NCBI RefSeq assembly: GCF_000372725.1
Contig: NW_005201392.1
Span: 4,521-68,520, forward strand
Reading direction: 5' to 3'
From: Emiliania huxleyi CCMP1516
Lineage: Eukaryota
Length of the DNA stretch: 64,000 nt
Shown here: piece by piece, positions 4,578 through 63,692 of the stretch
Layout of the letters: each line of letters opens with the position of its first letter
How positions within the stretch are numbered: position 1 is the first letter of the stretch
Program-made: the position numbers and the translations under genes
The notes under the pieces: model-generated
What the model was told of the DNA's origin: nothing
Databases searched by the model: none
What the model saw: the letters and a program-made list of their open reading frames with translations, nothing else

Positions 4578-9140
<4,563 letters not shown>

Positions 9141-19569: not shown

Positions 19570-20311
19570 CGGCGGGGATCGCGCCGCCCCCAGCGCTTTG
19601 CATGTAGCGTGCGCGGTCCGGCGGGGCGGGATGTTGACGCTGGCACGGGCCGGCGCACATAAGGTGGCGGAGATGAGCTTTGGCTTTTGCAGAGTCAGTG
19701 CTCCCCTGAGCATGAGCATGACTGATGCACCAGCATGAAACTGGTGAAGACGATGGTACAATGGGTCGTGTTGTGCAGTGCACATCTCTGTGCTCTCTGT
19801 GGACCCAAGCTGCGCACTGGAGAGAGCGTGATGGGTGTTCGCGATAAGACCAAGAGCCACATACACCCATACGCCGGGAGAACAGCACACCGCACCCGTC
19901 GACCTGCCCTTAACGGTAACAGAATGCGGCACGCGCCGCGCCGCTCGCGTGTCGCGAGCCACGCGGCCATCGTTCTCGCTACTTCACCCCACGGCTGCTC
20001 TTTCCCGCGCGCACGCCAACGCTCTCCACACAGCGCCGCGCGCTGCCCGCGCACCCGAGCGTCACACATGTTGGTCGGGGCGAGAGAGTGGGGGAGAGTC
20101 ACGACTCGAGCTTTGATGCGCATCATTCGAGCTTTTCTCCGCGCTGTCGGCGCCCACCAGCGACTTTCGCTCAGCGGCGTCCGCATCCGGACACCACGAG
20201 GTGCAGCAATCGATCGGCAAGGCGTTCCCTACGGAGCAAGAGGGAGAGACGCTGCGGAAACGGAGAGGGGACAGCGACGGCGTCGTCGAGCGGCAAGGCG
20301 GAGCCCCTTCC

Positions 20312-22042
20312 CTATCCCATCTTCTCCCAGCCAGCGACCAACTGCAGCGGCTTCTTCATCTCAGGCGGACGCGGGCCACGAGGTGGCGGCGGAGGCAGCG
20401 GTGGGGGTGACAGCGGAGGGGGTGGCGGCGGAGGCAGCGGTGGGGGTGGCAGTGGAGGTGGTGGAGGTGGCGGAGGTGGCGGTGGTGGCGGAGGTGGCGG
20501 AGGTGGCGGAGGTGGACTGGCAGCAAGCAGACGGCCGTGGTTGGGCCACGCCTCGTAATCTCGGGTAATCTCGGGTAATCTCGGGTAATCTCGGGTGTGC
20601 CTCGCGGCCACACCTCGGCGGTTGCATCTCGGCTGCCCCCGCACGCGAGGACCACCCCCGTGCCGAGTGCGTGGGCCTCTCCACTCTCCTCTCTCACCGT
20701 AGAGCAGGATTGCCAGCCCGACGAGGCACACGCCAAAGACAAACGTGGGGGTGATCTGAAAGTCGAAGAGAAAATACCTGCGCGGAGGGGCCGCAGCGTG
20801 TGAGCAGACGCCGCCCACGGCGAGCGGCGGCGCGTGGCGGGCGGAGCGCACGAGGCGACGGAGGAGACGATGATCGCGACCGCCTGCGCGAACCCGCGCA
20901 CCTAGTACCATACCTCCGCAGTATCGAACCCAGCCTGGGTTCGGTCCCGTGGGTGGTGCGGTCTCGCGCACGATGTTGTCGGCGTACTTGATCGTGATTG
21001 CGACGAGCAAGCCGCCCGCGACGTTCATCATGACGGTCGCCCACGTGTAGGCCCCGAAGCCGTGCAGCCACCCCTCGCTCGCGCGCGCCGCGTCCTCCTC
21101 CTGCAGCACCGTCGCCGTCGCGACGAGCCCGCAGTAGATAGCGAGCTGGATGTTGCGCAGCCTGTTCACAGCTACGGGTGTGAAGAGACGCTGTTCATAG
21201 TAGATAGCGAGCTGGATGTTGCGCAGCCAGAGCGACGGCTTCCGCGACCCCTTGAGCATCCGCTCAAAGTAGACGGAGGCGAAGGAGGTGCACAGCGCCG
21301 CCGTCAGCATCGCCACGATACCGAGCGCGACATCCGAGCCCATCGCATGTGCGCTCGGAGGCACTGCCGCGGGAGCGCCGGCGCCGGCCGCCAACTGGCG
21401 ATCCAGAAGCGGCGGAGGAGGCACTGCGGGCGGGTGGCCCGGGTGGCCCTTGCTGCCGTGCCCCTTGAAGAGCATCTTCGGTCCGGCGCCATAAGGGCTG
21501 GAGAGCAGCCTGCCGCCCGCCATACCGCTGCCCCTCGCAGGCTCGGCCGCGTACTTCTCCAGCAGCTTGGAGAGGATCCCCTGCACTGAGATGACGCCGA
21601 GCACGAGGCTCGAGAGGCCGGCCCACTGGGACAGGCCGAGCTGCTTGCCGAGCAGGGCGATGGAGAAGAGGGCGGTGAAGAGTATCTTGGTCTGGTACGT
21701 CACGTGCGCCACCGCCGCGTCCAGGTGCGACAGCCCGATGAACAGGCAGTTGTTTTGCACCGTGTAGAGCACCGCAGGGATGCCGAGCTGCACCCACTCC
21801 ATGGCATTCTCGCGCAGGTCGGCGCGGATGGCGCGAATCGCCTCGAGCGGCCCACCCGTCTCGTGCATGTACAGTCCCATGCTCAGCAGCAGCTTGACTC
21901 CCTCCTGCACCAGCACCGCCACGCGGGTCGAGTACGGCGTGCCCGGCACGTTGCGCGACAGCTTCATCAGCAGGACAACGCCCGCATTCTGGAATATGAA
22001 GATGGCGAGCGCGCCCCACTTGAGGGCAGCCGCGCTCGGCAT
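20312..22042 (-). CDS. SLC35A-family nucleotide-sugar (UDP-Gal/CMP-Sia-like) transporter, multi-exon; 3' end uncertain
   Basis: VAVLVQEGVKL, IPAVLYTVQNN, VTYQTKILFTALFS, FASVYFERMLK, SLWLRNIQL, GGLLVAITIKYADNIVRGFA. Confidence 0.9.
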   Translation of the reverse strand: MPSAAALKWGALAIFIFQNAGVVLLMKLSRNVPGTPYSTRVAVLVQEGVKLLLSMGLYMHETGGPLEAIRAIRADLRENAMEWVQLGIPAVLYTVQNNCLFIGLSHLDAAVAHVTYQTKILFTALFSIALLGKQLGLSQWAGLSSLVLGVISVQGILSKLLEKYAAEPARGSGMAGGRLLSSPYGAGPKMLFKGHGSKGHPGHPPAVPPPPLLDRQLAAGAGAPAAVPPSAHAMGSDVALGIVAMLTAALCTSFASVYFERMLKGSRKPSLWLRNIQLAIYYEQRLFTPVAVNRLRNIQLAIYCGLVATATVLQEEDAARASEGWLHGFGAYTWATVMMNVAGGLLVAITIKYADNIVRETAPPTGPNPGWVRYCGGMVLGARVRAGGRDHRLLRRLVRSARHAPPLAVGGVCSHAAAPPRRYFLFDFQITPTFVFGVCLVGLAILLYGERGEWRGPRTRHGGGPRVRGQPRCNRRGVAARHTRDYPRLPEITRDYEAWPNHGRLLAASPPPPPPPPPPPPPPPPPPPPPLPPPPLPPPPPPPLSPPPLPPPPPRGPRPPEMKKPLQLVAGWEKMG

Positions 22043-22389
22043 GGCCCCCCAGCGGCAAAGTTCGGGACGCGGTACACAGCTCGCGCCGGGCCTTGTGTGG
22101 GATGCTCAGTCCTCGTATACTGTGCAGCGTGGTAGTTCTTTTACTTTTTTCCAGCCTGGACCAGACAATACCTTACCTAACCACTGTTCTTCAGTACATA
22201 CATACATACCACGTAGCCTCGCGATCATCCAGCGTACCGCGCCCCCCCACCAAGACACGACAGCACGTCCGAATCAGCTGCATCCGAATACCGGTACGGC
22301 GGCGGGGGGTACGATGGCATGTAAAAGCGGGATTCACCCGGCTCCCGGGTCCGCCCCGCCTCGCGGACCTCGCACACCTCTACCCCTAG

Positions 22390-43005: not shown

Positions 43006-44455
43006 CCTCCGCCCGATCTCCCCACCTCCCATCCGAGGGGGCTCCCCTCTCCTCCCGGTCCTCCCTCCTGTTCGATTTCCGATGGTTCGGCGTCGGCTGC
43101 GGAGCCCGCCTTCCCCTCTTATACTTCTTCGACCGCGGCCTCGCCGTCGTCTCGTCTTCGGGGGCTATTCTTGTTGCCTCCGCCTCCGGCGATCCCGTGC
43201 CCGACTCCTCGGGTGAGGGCGGCGGCATTCGATCGCCACGCCGCCCCTCCCCGGGGGGTGGGGCCAGCTCTCTTCGGTCGAGGACTCGCGCCCGCCCCCG
43301 CGGTCTCTCTATCGTCCTCGGCTCGTCCGTCCGTCTCGACTCTACTCGCAGAGGCCGCGTCAGCTCGTCTCTCGCCTCCTCCGACAGCTGACCCCAGGCC
43401 CCCCCCGGGGCCCTCCGGTCTCGGCCCTCCGGCTCGCCGGCGGGTTCGTTATTGTGTTGCGGCAACTCCCCCCTCCCAGCTCCTTCTCCCGGGTACGCCA
43501 GCCTCCGGCGGGGCGGTTCCGGATCCCCCAGGTTATTCCGAGCGGGTCCACACGGTGGCGGCCCCGCCGGCGGCGGGGGTGGAGGCGGTGGCAGGGGCGG
43601 CGGGTATAGTGGCGGCCCTTGCGGTCCAAACGCCTGGTGTGGAGCCGCTGGGGCGGCCCCACGACCCTGCAGCCGTCCCAGTGGTGGGGGCGGAAGTGGC
43701 TGTACGTTATCTTTCTTTTTTTTTCTGGGCACGGGACTGGGGGAAAGAATTCTGCCACGCGCCCCCCTGGGGAAAGAAGACAGGTCGGACAAAGCAGTAC
43801 ATACAGCTAGTTAGTTAGGAGCCGATTCACACGACAGACAAGGCGCAGACGACAAGAAAGAAGTTCGCACCGCTGGGTGCGCTTCTTAGCTCCCCGGGCC
43901 TGGATGTGAGGTTAATGACTGCACTCCAAGTGCTCCAAGTGCACTGGCGGGCCTCCTACGATAGGGTAGGCTAGTGACACCTGCCATGAGTGCACAGCGC
44001 AGGCATTGGGCACCTGACATATAATTTGTGTTCCTCGGGGTGGCTCATTCACGGAAAGGAGAGGGAAACTCGAGCGCCTGGATGCCCAACTACCGCTGGG
44101 TGCTGCTGGCATGACGTGTATATCTTCCCTCTCGTAGATAGACTATAACGTCACGGTCATCACCACCAACCAACAGTCCAACCAAGCACATGACCAGACC
44201 AGCCAGCGGGACGTTGTGCAGGTCTTCGTTCAGCGCTTTGCGGCAGACTTCGCGGCAGACTCCCTCCACAGCGATCCGAGATGTATGTGCATGTATTGTT
44301 AAATGGTACTAGTTGGGGCAGTGTGGTCGCAATGCAAAGAGTGGCCGGGGAAGCGTTTCCAAGTGTATCGGGAAAAAATTTTTACAAAAAAAGAAAAAGC
44401 CGCGCCACCTTGGTTGGCGCAGCTTGCAGTCGACAAGCTCGCCCACGCTCCGGCG

Positions 44456-51492
<7,037 letters not shown>

Positions 51493-51906
51493 CCGGCTGC
51501 GCGTCACCGTCGCAGTCGCCACACGCGCTCTTAGCTACGCCCCCGCCGACCCTGTCTTGTATCTCTTGCGCACACACATACGCCAGTGAGCTGCTGGCGC
51601 GACTGGTCGTGTCGCTCCGGTCCCTTTTGTTACTCTGTATGCGGAGGTGAGGTGTGCGCAAGGAAATCTTATACGTAAAAGCTCGTGCACGCCGGTAGGA
51701 GGTGGTTGCTCCGCCGCCGGACCGCCCTCTCGCGCAGCCTGAACTCCCCCGTAGAAGCTCGCGAACAGTGCGGATTGTTGGAGCGCCGCGCCGGACCTCC
51801 CCGCCGGGGCCCGCCGGGGCGCCATATGGGACTCGTGGTGCCCGAGAAGCTTAGAGGTGAAGGTTTTTTGCTTGTGTCTATCGGTTCATGTCATGGACCG
51901 GCCGGC

Positions 51907-54653
51907 CTACTCAAACATGTCCGCGAGCAGCTCCTTGTTCTTCATGACTGCCCAGTCGGTGAGGCCGGCGAGCAGGTTCGTCTGCTCGTTGGTCAGTGAT
52001 GTGAGACCTCCCTTGAGGCCGCAGCACTCGCCGCCGGCGCCACACGAGACGATCGGGTTGGGCAGGAACGAGCCAAAGTGCGGGAAGCCGGCGAAGGGGC
52101 CGTCGTCGCCCTTGGCCAGCTGGTCGCGCGTGTCCTGCGGCAGCTGCGCCTCCCACTCTTTCGAGCTCGAGAGGTAAAAGAGGCAGAGGTCGAGACGCTT
52201 GTCCGGCGCGACGCCCATGTAGTCGTTGCCCACCTGGGGAGATATGGGGAGATATGGGGAGAGATGGGGAGAGATGGGGAGATGCGGGGAGATGCGGGAG
52301 ATGCGGGGAGAGACGTAATCGCTGCCCACCGTGGTCAGCGTCATGCGCACGACGGCGGTCTTGCCATCCGCCATGCTGTCCTGCATCGCGCGCACAAAGG
52401 GGCCAAAGTCGCTCTCACGGAAGACTCGCAGCGTGGCCGGGTCGCGCTCGGGCCAGCCCCACCTACAGGACGGTTCTAGGAGAGGTCTAGGAAAGGTCTA
52501 GGAGGGGTCTAGGAAAGGTCGCGCTCGGGCCAGCCCCACCGGTCCGCGCCGACGGAGAGCCCAAAGAGCGGCGGGAGGAAGCTCGAGATGGATTCGCGGA
52601 GCTTCTCCTCCGACGTCTCGCTGTACGGGTCCTGGGGAGATATGGGGAGATATGGGGAGAGAGACGGGGAGAGACGGGAAGAGACGGGGAGAGACGGGGA
52701 GAGGCGGGGAGAGGCGGGGAGAGGCGGGGAGAGGTGGACCTGTGCTAGGCCTCGAGATACGGGGAGATACGGGGAGATGTGGGGGGAGATATGGATCTGC
52801 GCATCTGGGCTCGCTACCCACTTGTCGCGCGGCGCGAGCGGCTGGGACGTGTTGAGGAAGCAGACCTCATGGTCGACGCTCCGCACCAGCACGTTGTACT
52901 GCGCGAGGATGTCGCCCTCGAGGTCGCCGTCCCCCTGCCGGTAGCGGCTGGACGGCGGCGGCTGCGGCTGCTCCGCCATCTTTGGCCAGTCGGGGAGGAG
53001 CGGCCCAACCAGGGGCACGTCGAGCAGCTTGGTGAGCCCGTCGACGATTGTCGATGTGCCAGTCGTGACCACCGCGTACTTGCGCAAGCAGCAGAAGAGG
53101 CCGCCGCCGAACTGGCAGCGGTCGTCGTTGCGCGTCGACGGGTCGGTGCTCGCGGTCAGCCAGTAGAGGTCGCGCTCGCCCCAGACCGAGGATGCGCCCG
53201 CCGCCTGCCCAGGGTTCGGGTACCGTGGGGGTAGGGGAGGGTGGCTTCGGGTACCGTGGGGTAGGGGAGGGACGCGCCAGCCGCCTGCTTCAGGCTCCAG
53301 CGCAACTCCGGAGGCGGAAGGCCTTCGACGACTGCGCTCGCGCCGGGCACGGCATCCGAGAGGGACGATCCCGCCGCGGCGCCTCCGTATGCAAACGGCT
53401 CGATCATTCCGCCCTTGGTGACCTGTAGGGAGAGATGGGGAGATATGGGGAGACATGGGGAGATACGGGGAGATCATCCCGCCCTTGGTGACCGTCGCGG
53501 TGGAGCCATCGGCGTAGGTGACGTCGACGTCCTGCAGGAGCGGGTAGCCGACGTACAGCGGCGTGCTCTCCATGTTTGTGAAGGCGTTCTTCGTCGACGA
53601 GAGCAGCGGCGCGCCTGCGGAGGATCGCTCCGAGAAGGTTCACGGAAAGGTCCAGCAGCCGTTCTCCGCCGACGAGAGCACAAGACGCGCCCGAGCCAGC
53701 AAGCAAGGAGCCGTCCTTAGGCGGGCCGAGGGAGGAGGTGGAGAGGATGAGGAACGGCGCGCCCTCGCGTGGGAGGAGGAAGTCGGAGGCCTTGAGGTGC
53801 CGGTTCCGCGCCAGCGCCTCCTCGCGAGACTGCTCGTTCCACGTGAAGAATTGGTCGCCCCCGAGCCCGTACGGCTGCAGCACCGCGTCACCCAGCGACT
53901 GGCTCCAGACCTGCCCGGGGTTCGGGTACCGTGGGGTAGGGGAGGGTGGGTTCGGGTACCGTGGAGTAGGGTAGGGTGGGTTCGAGTACCGTGGGGTGAG
54001 GGAGGGTGGGTCCGGACCTGCCCAGGGTCGCCTGTCCAGCAGCCGAGGCAGCCCGCGCGCGCGGCGCGCGGCAGCAGCCCGAAGAACATGTCGCGCGTCG
54101 CGCCGTACCCCAGCGACTCCTTTGGCAGCTCCGCGAGCTGAGCCATCGTCAGCTCCTCGGGCGGCGGGCTCGCGCCGTAAAAGACGCTGTCGGGCGTGTC
54201 GTTTTGGTTGTAGACGGTCACCGCCGTCAGCCACGAGCCGCCCGAGACGCCGGCCAGGTACCGCGTCCTCTTCAAGTGGTGCAGGTTGTGAAGCGCCCGC
54301 ATCTGGCCGTAGCCGGCCGCGTATGAGCGGCACCCGCCGCCGCTGACGCACACCCCGATGTTGGCGGTAACCGTCGTGTCTTGGAACCCGGGGAGCTGCT
54401 GCTCGGGCCAGGGGTAGTCCACCACGCCGACGGTGTTGAAGCCGTTGTAGCGCTCTCCCGCCCAGAGCTTCGCCGTGGTGCTCGGCGGCTCGCAGCACCG
54501 CAGTCGAGGCTGCGGCGTGCCGTGGGTCGTCGCGGCAGCCGGCGCCGTGGAGCGAGCGGCCGCCGGCTGAACCAGCGGCTGCTGCTGCCGGTGCTGCTGC
54601 CTCCGCATCTTGACGTAGCCACTCGACGGAGGTGGACAGCTGGGCGTCGCCAT
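51907..54653 (-). CDS. cPLA2/phospholipase B (patatin-like) lysophospholipase, multi-exon
   Basis: GVCVSGGGCRS oxyanion motif, YLAGVSGGSW nucleophile elbow, later GDGDLE candidate catalytic Asp. Confidence 0.82.
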
Positions 54654-59663: not shown

Positions 59664-60100
59664 CACTTGGAGCACTTGGAGTGCAGTCATTAGCCTCACA
59701 TCCAGGGCCGGGGAGCTGAGAAGCGCACCCAGCGGGCCGGATGATCGGGATCGGGTTGCGGGCAAGAGAGCCCTAGCCCTGGGGGGTGCGCGGTCGCAGG
59801 GCCATAACACGGGTCTCCGAGGGATAGTACCGCGCTCCGGGTTTCCCCTAGCAGCAGAACGCCCCCTCTACTCGGAGCTAAAGAATACTCTCCGAGAGTT
59901 AGTCCGCGCTCCAGGTTTCCCCTAGCAGCGGAGTCGCACTTGGAGCACTTGGAGTGCGGTCATTAACCTCACGCCCACCCAGGGCCGGGGAGCTGAGAAG
60001 CGCACCCAGTTGGCCGGACGCTCGGCATCGGGTTACGGGCTAGAGAGCCCTAGCCCCGGGGGTGCGCGGTCGCAGGGCCATAACACGTCTCCGAGGGATG
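59664..60100 (+). repeat. Two tandem copies of the dispersed intergenic repeat family
   Basis: CACTTGGAGCACTTGGAGTGC... starts at ~59664 and again at ~59937. Confidence 0.85.
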
Positions 60101-62513: not shown

Positions 62514-63692
62514 AGTGAGTGAGTGAGTGAGTGAGTGAGTGAGTGAGTGAGTGAGTGAGTGAGTGAGTGAGTGAGTGAGTGAGGGAGTGAGTGAGTGAGT
62601 GAGTGTGTGTGTGTGTGTGTGCGCGCTTCTCCTCCCGCTGTGGGAAGGACAAGGCTCGGACAAGGCTCCCCCCCGTATCTCCCCCGTATCTCCCCCGCAT
62701 CTCCTCGTATCTCCCCGCATCTCCCCGTACCTCCCCCGCATCTCCGCATCGCAAGGCAGGAGCCTCCGCCATCTCGACTGGGTCTCGACTGGGTCTCTGC
62801 TGGGTCTCTGCTGGGTCTCTTGCTGGGTCTCGGCAAGCTCCCTGCTATCTCCCTGCTATCTCCCTGCTATCTCCCGGCGATCTCCCTGCGATCTCCCTGC
62901 GATCTCCCTGCGATCTCCCTGCTATCTCCCTGCGATCTCCCGGCGATCTCCCGGCGATCTCCCGGCGATCTCCCGGGCCAGACCTTGATGGAGTGGTCGA
63001 GCAGCACTGCGTCGAGAGGCCGAGCGCCGTGCTTAGCCTGGATCGACGGGAGCCGATCGGCCACTGACCCGATCCGCACCTGCTCACGGGGGGGGACAGG
63101 CGTGGAGAGACGCCGTTCACAGCCGCTGCGCCGCCGCTCCGCTCCCCACCTCCACGCGGTCCCGCAGCCCCGCGTGCTCGACCACGGTCGACGCAATCGC
63201 GGCAAACAGCGGCTCGATCTCGACCGAGACGAGCTTGGCGCCGGGCGGGAGGAGGCGGCCCATCCGGACGGCGGTGTAGCCGCAGTACGTGCCCAGCTCC
63301 ATCACGTACGCCTCCGGCCCGCGCTTCGCATGCACCTCCTCGACGGCGCGGTCGATGGCCTGGCTGCGCAGCTTCCACTCGGCCGTGCCAGCGCCGTTGA
63401 AGTACGTGTCCCAGAAGACGTCCATCGCGTCGAGCACCGAGGCCGGATCGCCCTCCGTCGACGAGCTGATCACGTGCCGCAGCAGCGAGCGCTCGCGCAG
63501 CTCGTTGAAGTCCGAGGTCGCAGAGGGCGGCCGCGCAGCGTCGTTTGAGTCCCAGCGCACGGGCGGCGCAGGGCGCGAGATCGCCGAGGCGCGCGCCGCC
63601 GACAGCGGGCTGAAGGCGCCCGCGCCCGCGTGGAAGCTCCGGCTCCGCAGCGCGCGCGTCGTCGCGCCCGAAAAGGGCTTGAGGGAGATCAT
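61418..63692 (-). CDS. Catechol O-methyltransferase-like (class I SAM) protein, multi-exon
   Basis: GDPASVLDAMD, MELGTYCGYTAVRM, LVSVEIEP, LDAVLLDH, LPDLRLLE. Confidence 0.88.

Follow-up and report, generated by a model that had tools for sequence, protein, structure and literature searches.

Two introns in unrelated genes of Emiliania huxleyi CCMP1516 contain the same short module, which belongs to a multi-copy family (family D) and probably represents an introner that was inserted in a copy-and-paste manner, with priming at a staggered break and anchoring on the 3′ end of the module. Both introns are located within a 64-kb stretch of contig NW_005201392.1 (hereafter the window), which has 64% G+C, ranging from 53 to 70% along its length, and contains five runs of N. 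An earlier note, made from the letters of the window alone, had reported one insert in intron 21162–21227 on the minus strand (locus A) and in intron 5286–5349 on the plus strand (locus B), and had favoured a shared trans template over local slippage as its source. The two genes are indeed unrelated: the exon upstream of intron A matches PF04142 (E 4.8e-51), as found in nucleotide-sugar transporters, and the exon upstream of intron B matches PF00459 (E 1.2e-9) of the inositol-monophosphatase family, and the spliced frame is open in both cases.

The boundaries of both introns are defined by RNA. A contig of RNA run X12 (record 9) joins 21132 to 21199 at locus A, corresponding to a skip of 66 nucleotides (nt) whose joint is ambiguous over 30 letters, and another contig from the same run (record 12) reaches 5307 at locus B and continues with letters identical to 5372 onward, corresponding to a skip of 64 nt. 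The coordinates proposed in the earlier note are the only G[C/T]..AG placements that are compatible with these joints, and exactly one such placement exists for every RNA-supported intron of the two genes (six in all, of 64, 66, 70, 70, 74 and 88 nt). Contigs of RNA run X10 are interrupted at the module in A as well as in B and speak neither for nor against the joints, and raw RNA run X17 contains no match at locus B. At the DNA level, the introns are present in contigs of runs X3 and X6 at locus A and of run X1 at locus B. Because the four neighbouring RNA-supported introns have only 2–7 ambiguous letters at their joints, a repeat of the exon is not required for splicing; two of these four carry apparent decayed exon copies (14/30 and 17/30 bases). 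Intron A has no stop in the frame of the gene and, if retained, would add 22 residues to the transporter without truncating it.

Each intron is built from a copy of an exon stretch followed by the module. The exon copy in front of the insert, which the earlier note had also recognized, comprises 30 nt at locus A and 23 nt at locus B, each including the last exon base. At locus A, this base is the first G of the upstream copy and the other 29 nt form the 5′ end of the intron, where they would supply the GC donor. Copy A of the module together with G21162 ends with ...GTGAACAG, a motif that is present at both ends of this copy, and copy B has a nearly full-length 5′ end (ACGAGGTGT...) and a 2-nt deletion close to its 3′ end, where it reads GTGTAG for GTGAAYAG. 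The two fillers have a 21-base core in common, with one differing position, as well as GCTGTG further on. Across the window the core has two matches when up to three mismatches are allowed, where zero would be expected, and no match at all was obtained in any of 100 shuffles.

The module is not restricted to these two genes. A scan of metagenome contigs that required an exact 20-base core returned 48 matches in 47 loci, seven of which are duplicates of the same locus, leaving 41 distinct copies. Metagenome locus L033 is identical to locus A of the window (621/621) and L028 is nearly so to locus B (616/621), and thus the metagenome contigs derive from the same species. The earlier note had named two copies only, or descent from one segmental duplication, as the outcomes that would speak against its model; instead, 39 of the 41 copies are found at other places, each with its own flanks. 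The DNA runs, which come from cultures, point in the same direction, with a summed contig depth over the module at locus A of 23,012 compared with ~18 for the flank in X3 and of 345,647 compared with ~552 in X6, and over 5310–5346 at locus B of 12,112 compared with ~30 in X1 (about 270–460 times the flank), where depth summed in this way is no copy number and is read only as 'hundreds or more'. Dozens of loose contig ends from these runs begin exactly at the module edges at both loci, including both edges of 21161–21197 at locus A, and five further contigs of X3 and X6 consist of a module end, 28–33 other letters and a module start. A scan of viral contigs for the core yielded no matches.

Three of the 41 copies are without the usual 3′ end and one is cut by the end of its contig, so that the presence of a flanking duplication could be assessed for 37, by comparing the sequence after the module AG with the sequence upstream of the module (threshold score ≥28). 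In 32 of the 37 loci the module is flanked by a locus-specific direct repeat, a score reached by only 5 of 1332 mismatched control pairs. These 32 loci are the basis of the following description. The duplication has a length of 17–40 nt (median 25, standard deviation (s.d.) 5.7) with 22 mismatches over 665 compared positions. The recurring copies, their duplications and the depth together establish that the filler is a shared and repeatedly inserted sequence rather than a product of local slippage, as the earlier note had argued; its prediction of many copies with duplications of variable length is likewise borne out, whereas the source locus that it expected was not found.

The consensus of the module is ~43 nt long, about (G)GAGGTGTGAACAGCGTCTCTTCACACCCACTGCTGTGAAYAG, with individual copies of roughly 37–43 nt; when full-length, it has GTGTGAACAG near the 5′ end and GCTGTGAAYAG at the 3′ end. 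The 3′ end is fixed: every one of the 32 copies stops at an AG that abuts the duplication, in almost all cases as part of GTGAAYAG. The 5′ end, by contrast, is ragged, in that conservation fades more than 8 nt upstream of the core, and several copies, including copy A, are trimmed to GT or AT. The length of ~36 nt originally given for the insert therefore applies to the stretch between the exon copies at locus A, whereas the family consensus is longer, copy A being 5′-truncated and copy B 3′-deleted. Similarly, the insert was described as non-repetitive, but it is not structureless, given the GTGAACAG motif at the two ends of copy A and an 8-bp inverted repeat, GGTGTGAA/TTCACACC, within the full-length module. 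This repeat is internal, with 14 nt standing 3′ of it, and copy A has no left arm, yet was inserted and is spliced. Neither the two introns nor the two modules fold better than shuffles (z −0.2 to −1.6), and an Rfam scan of 20300–22300 returned only one sub-threshold match, resembling a small nucleolar RNA and located elsewhere (E 0.15). With weak folding scores, no Rfam family and a copy A that has no hairpin, a structural RNA role of the module is unsupported.

Both junctions of the module carry signs of microhomology. At the 5′ junction, comparison of the final 4 nt of the upstream repeat with the bases that would come next in the module gives 31 matches out of 64 (null 20.9, s.d. 3.2, p 0.002), and 0–10 extra nt that cannot be assigned to either part are present between duplication and module. 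On the 3′ side, exon base −2 from the splice site is an A in 13 of 29 loci (A frequency 0.12, p 1.6e-5); this A mimics the module's own ..AG and amounts to microhomology at the 3′ junction.

The target of insertion is G|G followed by C (18 loci), T (8), A (4) or another arrangement (2), which results in GC, GT, GA and other donors, respectively. These shares are close to those in the published figures for E. huxleyi introns, where passages of PMC4028052 give 56–65% GC, 35–40% GT and ~4% GA donors with 98–100% AG acceptors. Upon removal of the intron, the phase of G+C at third codon positions (GC3) is continuous between the flanks in 17 of 31 loci, with ~10 expected, and in 10 of 11 loci whose two flanks are both strongly periodic, for the most part in phase 0. 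For the metagenome copies this continuity is indirect support for splicing; the RNA joints pertain to the two window loci. An open-frame test of the spliced flanks does not discriminate, with many frames open on both strands in such G+C-rich DNA.

The total length of the introns is much less variable than that of their parts. Intron length ranges from 61 to 75 nt with a median of 68 nt and an s.d. of 3.4, compared with an s.d. of 8.0 expected if the parts were independent, and the detection window would have admitted introns of about 49–105 nt. Repeat length and filler length are inversely related (r = −0.80), and none of 10000 permutations is as narrow in total length. We infer that this reflects selection for a sharp minimal intron size of ~68 nt, the alternative being a mechanistic ruler. 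Peaks at a minimal intron length are known in other eukaryotes.

Insertions of 5′-truncated retrotransposons that lack long terminal repeats (non-LTR retrotransposons), and of the short elements mobilized by them, have a fixed 3′ end, are truncated to varying extents at the 5′ end, duplicate target stretches of varying length and show microhomology where the 5′ end is joined. Family D bears all four of these marks of non-LTR retroposition by target-primed reverse transcription. We note that family D differs from known short interspersed elements in having no tail and no internal promoter and in being, at ~43 nt, far shorter, and that, in contrast to non-LTR retrotransposons, it comes with no identified reverse-transcriptase partner. 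The fixed 3′ end, the ragged 5′ end, the long and variable duplications and the microhomology at the two junctions thus fit copying that is primed at a break and anchored at the 3′ end, and do not fit a transposase with a fixed stagger. Insertion would then resemble target-primed reverse transcription, or a related polymerase fill-in, and not cut-and-paste by a transposase. The duplicated target would provide the 5′ splice site from the coding bases that happen to come after G|G; the contribution of the module would be the AG and, presumably, the branch point. Exonic insertions would survive only near the minimal intron size, so that long duplications would come to be paired with truncated modules.

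Not all copies conform to this simple layout. Three of the 41 copies are irregular in a manner that suggests template switching at the DNA level: in L019 the hairpin part is inverted, L038 is a partial copy, and L041 is 3′-truncated and joined via 7–8 nt of microhomology, with its AG taken from the duplicated exon. L004 holds one copy in each orientation, arranged head to head (L004:281–450) at a distance of 48 nt, with the same 5′ extension and with duplications of 11 and 23 nt; both units are 67–68 nt long, and one could be spliced on the other strand only via an AG|GC inside its own duplication. Two tandem units of duplication plus module are present in L030, L044 and L045. In these three loci and in L031, a second and more diverged module is seen one unit upstream of the core match, and L044 has a third, decayed exon copy further upstream. 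The candidate compound intron of 139 nt at L047:170–335 contains, in this order, a filler of a second family, (TCGGGTAATC)n, 23 nt copied from the end of the upstream exon and a family D module, a layout that suggests repeated events at one site. Together, the irregular copies point to polymerase template switching as part of the process.

Several observations weigh against 3′-anchored copy-and-paste insertion as the origin of family D, including the irregular copies and the opposite orientations within L004. Weak or no duplication is seen in 5 of the 37 testable loci, and no A-rich or simple-repeat tail follows the 3′ end of the copies in the 32 loci. Because the metagenome scan demanded an exact core, the sample is biased to young copies, and depth as a measure of abundance goes no further than stated above. 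No empty (pre-insertion) allele is seen among the contigs of X3, X6 and X1 and the metagenome contigs, which represent few strains and all of which carry the introns, and the insertion is therefore read from structure only. The consensus of the loose-end contigs past the module is near random (agreement 0.45–0.57), with no longer parent copy visible, and neither an autonomous partner nor a source locus turned up in the window and the contigs, the extent of the search. Moreover, codon-position composition does not resolve the orientation of the copies relative to genes in the metagenome loci, the known locus L033 scoring −0.03.

The closest rival is break-repair filler, in which double-strand breaks in transcribed genes would be mended by end joining, with templated synthesis that copies an existing module or an excised intron RNA and re-copies the flank, with no dedicated machinery. 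This explanation shares its chemistry with break-primed, 3′-anchored insertion and differs mainly in the dedicated enzyme and the template. It would account for the microhomology at both junctions, for the 0–10 unassignable nt between duplication and module and for the irregular copies L019, L041, L004, L030, L044, L045 and L047, and there is a precedent in Daphnia, where neointrons with flanking direct repeats are ascribed to staggered breaks in passages of PMC4202315. However, random filler should vary by locus, whereas one module, with one and the same 3′ end, is found at 41 or more loci, and the Daphnia repeats are 4–12 bp compared with 17–40 nt in family D, such that we regard repair filler as unlikely. 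It is also conceivable, if rather doubtful, that excised intron RNA, with the AG at its 3′ end, serves as the template and is reverse-transcribed at staggered breaks in transcribed genes, starting from the 3′ end and usually incompletely, with the 17–40-nt target duplication becoming the donor, a route by which most of the ~70-nt introns of the alga would be built. The GC majority would then arise simply because the donor is what follows G|G in G+C-rich coding sequence.

A miniature inverted-repeat DNA transposon mobilized by a transposase, the mechanism proposed for most published introners, appears improbable. Although the full-length module has the 8-bp inverted repeat GGTGTGAA/TTCACACC, and most classified introners are DNA elements with terminal inverted repeats according to passages of PMC12130899, the repeat in family D is internal rather than terminal, and copy A was inserted and is spliced without the left arm. 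The duplication spans 17–40 nt instead of having a single short fixed length; in addition, the module has a ragged 5′ end and a folding energy like that of shuffles (z −0.2 to −1.6). Still less credence is due to the possibility that an intron of ~68 nt was inserted whole, without duplication, and that the start of the next exon later replaced its 5′ part, from the 5′ splice site inward, as could happen through abortive repair templated by spliced cDNA. Overwriting would explain why the total length hardly changes although exon copy and module meet at shifting positions (r = −0.80), and why the exon copy always begins exactly at the splice site, but even the introns with the shortest exon copies show no conserved 5′ part past about −8 to −14, an extra event would be needed at each locus in addition to selection on length, and the antisense copy in L004 shows the same layout of duplication plus module. 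Chance resemblance, an assembly artefact or one segmental duplication would have nothing beyond the prior that only two copies lie in the window to recommend it and can be practically dismissed, with zero chance matches expected, the introns present in independent DNA runs and metagenome contigs, flanks that belong to unrelated genes and 39 further distinct loci. An origin by tandem duplication of the exon was rejected: only the 5′ 17–40 nt copy the exon, and the remainder is the shared module.

Table 1. Coordinates of family D introns and their parts in the window
Feature	Coordinates	Strand	Length (nt)	Basis
Intron A, GC-AG, nucleotide-sugar transporter gene	21162..21227	-	66	RNA joint and unique GY..AG placement
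Upstream copy of the locus A duplication	21199..21228	-	30	Exact 30/30 repeat of 21133-21162
Family D module copy A, 5′-truncated	21163..21198	-	36	nhmmer E 1.1e-13
Downstream copy of the locus A duplication	21133..21162	-	30	G 21162 closes AG; rest starts next exon
Intron B, GC-AG, inositol-monophosphatase-family gene	5286..5349	+	64	RNA joint and unique GY..AG placement
Upstream exon-stretch copy, locus B	5285..5307	+	23	1 mismatch to 5349-5371
Family D module copy B	5308..5348	+	41	nhmmer E 7.7e-14
Downstream (exonic) copy of the locus B duplication	5349..5371	+	23	Sequence repeat
Candidate third, diverged family D intron, GT-AG	63080..63149	-	70	nhmmer match 63102-63123, E 0.0025

The candidate third intron of the window (Table 1), detected with a profile derived from the family D copies, has a decayed exon duplication, in which 9 of the first 12 bases match the next exon. 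An RNA-supported GT-AG intron of 74 nt at 20778–20851 (minus strand) contains GGCGTCTGCTCACACGCTGCGG, which is similar to the family D core, and is possibly an old and diverged family member that has no remaining exon copy. In X6, contig depth is elevated ~1150 times over the flanks at 20555–20597 and 68 times at 20903–20962. The latter peak lies inside the RNA-supported 70-nt intron 20902–20971, which implies that neighbouring introns are also built from repeated modules. The RNA-supported GC-AG intron at 5025–5112 (plus strand, 88 nt) is largely composed of GCC repeats, and its 7-nt junction repeat (GTGCAG) is on the opposite side, where it duplicates the last bases of the upstream exon.

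Structures composed of an exon copy and a filler occur elsewhere in the window. Twelve of these, with exon copies of 15–26 nt, fillers of 45–64 nt and periods of 69–85 nt, are located at 6086–6162, 6223–6324, 6685–6755, 7487–7570, 7882–7951, 8255–8346, 45039–45117, 45414–45483, 46913–47008, 52440–52517, 53409–53492 and 59840–59914. Their fillers are short tandem motifs, for example GACATGTCC(GA), CATATCTCCC and GGTACCC-like units, and most admit one GY..AG placement from the second base of the repeat, which is the layout of family D in different families. Overall, a GY..AG placement is possible for ~16 of 26 other structures of this kind in the window (periods 64–85 nt). The region 44001–52000 has a lower G+C content (0.53–0.63) and a strong negative GC skew, and includes runs of N at 47256–47805 and 49949–50146.

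One sequence at 41 distinct loci with unique flanks, and in the window in genes of different Pfam families, is the pattern by which introners are recognized. As described in passages of a 2022 paper (PMC9860276), published introners resemble family D in being short multi-copy introns in unrelated genes with the AG at the end of the element, in obtaining the donor from the duplicated target, including GC and GA donors, and in restoring the mRNA exactly. The introners described there have duplications of 3–9 bp that are fixed for each family, and often terminal inverted repeats, whereas in family D there are no terminal inverted repeats, the variable duplication of 17–40 nt accounts for between one quarter and one half of the intron, and its length trades off against 5′ truncation. 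The long, variable duplications of family D thus look unusual for introners.

For E. huxleyi CCMP1516 itself, supplementary Tables 5–6 of PMC9860276 list 653 introner elements in five families with mean lengths of 70, 70, 37, 37 and 37 nt, and mark their target duplications '?' or 'N'. A later supplement (PMC12130899) has three E. huxleyi families with the mechanism given as Unknown or LTR, one of them with '10bp terminal direct repeats', and supplementary rows of both papers describe the E. huxleyi introners as biased to genes (82% in genes). Judged by these row descriptions, which come without sequences, family D may correspond to one of the families with a mean length of 37 nt; among these, one has 54.0% G+C compared with ~54% for the family D module (hand count). 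Long duplications, length control and junction features are absent from the E. huxleyi supplementary rows and the main-text passages of the two papers, and searches of the literature on E. huxleyi led to these supplementary rows only and to no main text on long exon duplications in introns. New introns of Daphnia pulex, as presented in passages of PMC4202315, are similar to family D in that the far end of the intron repeats the end of the adjacent exon and in forming compound introns through repeated events, but their repeats measure 4–12 bp and their fillers are not described there as one high-copy family, whereas family D is found in at least 41 loci.

The origin of new spliceosomal introns is a long-standing question, for which introners are the best-supported source. 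Family D represents a form in which the element itself is only ~40 nt and a long, variable exon duplication supplies the remaining intron together with the donor. Because the donor comes from the exon duplication, its sequence is not conserved past G|GY. If the same is true of the other filler families of the window, which share the layout of family D, it would provide a mechanical reason for the GC-AG (and some GA-AG) majority of E. huxleyi introns, which passages of PMC4028052 have so far ascribed to base composition, and would also explain mis-calls by gene predictors that force GT-AG. In addition, the tight length control (68 nt, s.d. 3.4) offers a direct handle on the constraints that act on minimal introns, and the 3′-anchored, microhomology-joined structure makes the old idea of intron retroposition testable with pan-genomes of strains.

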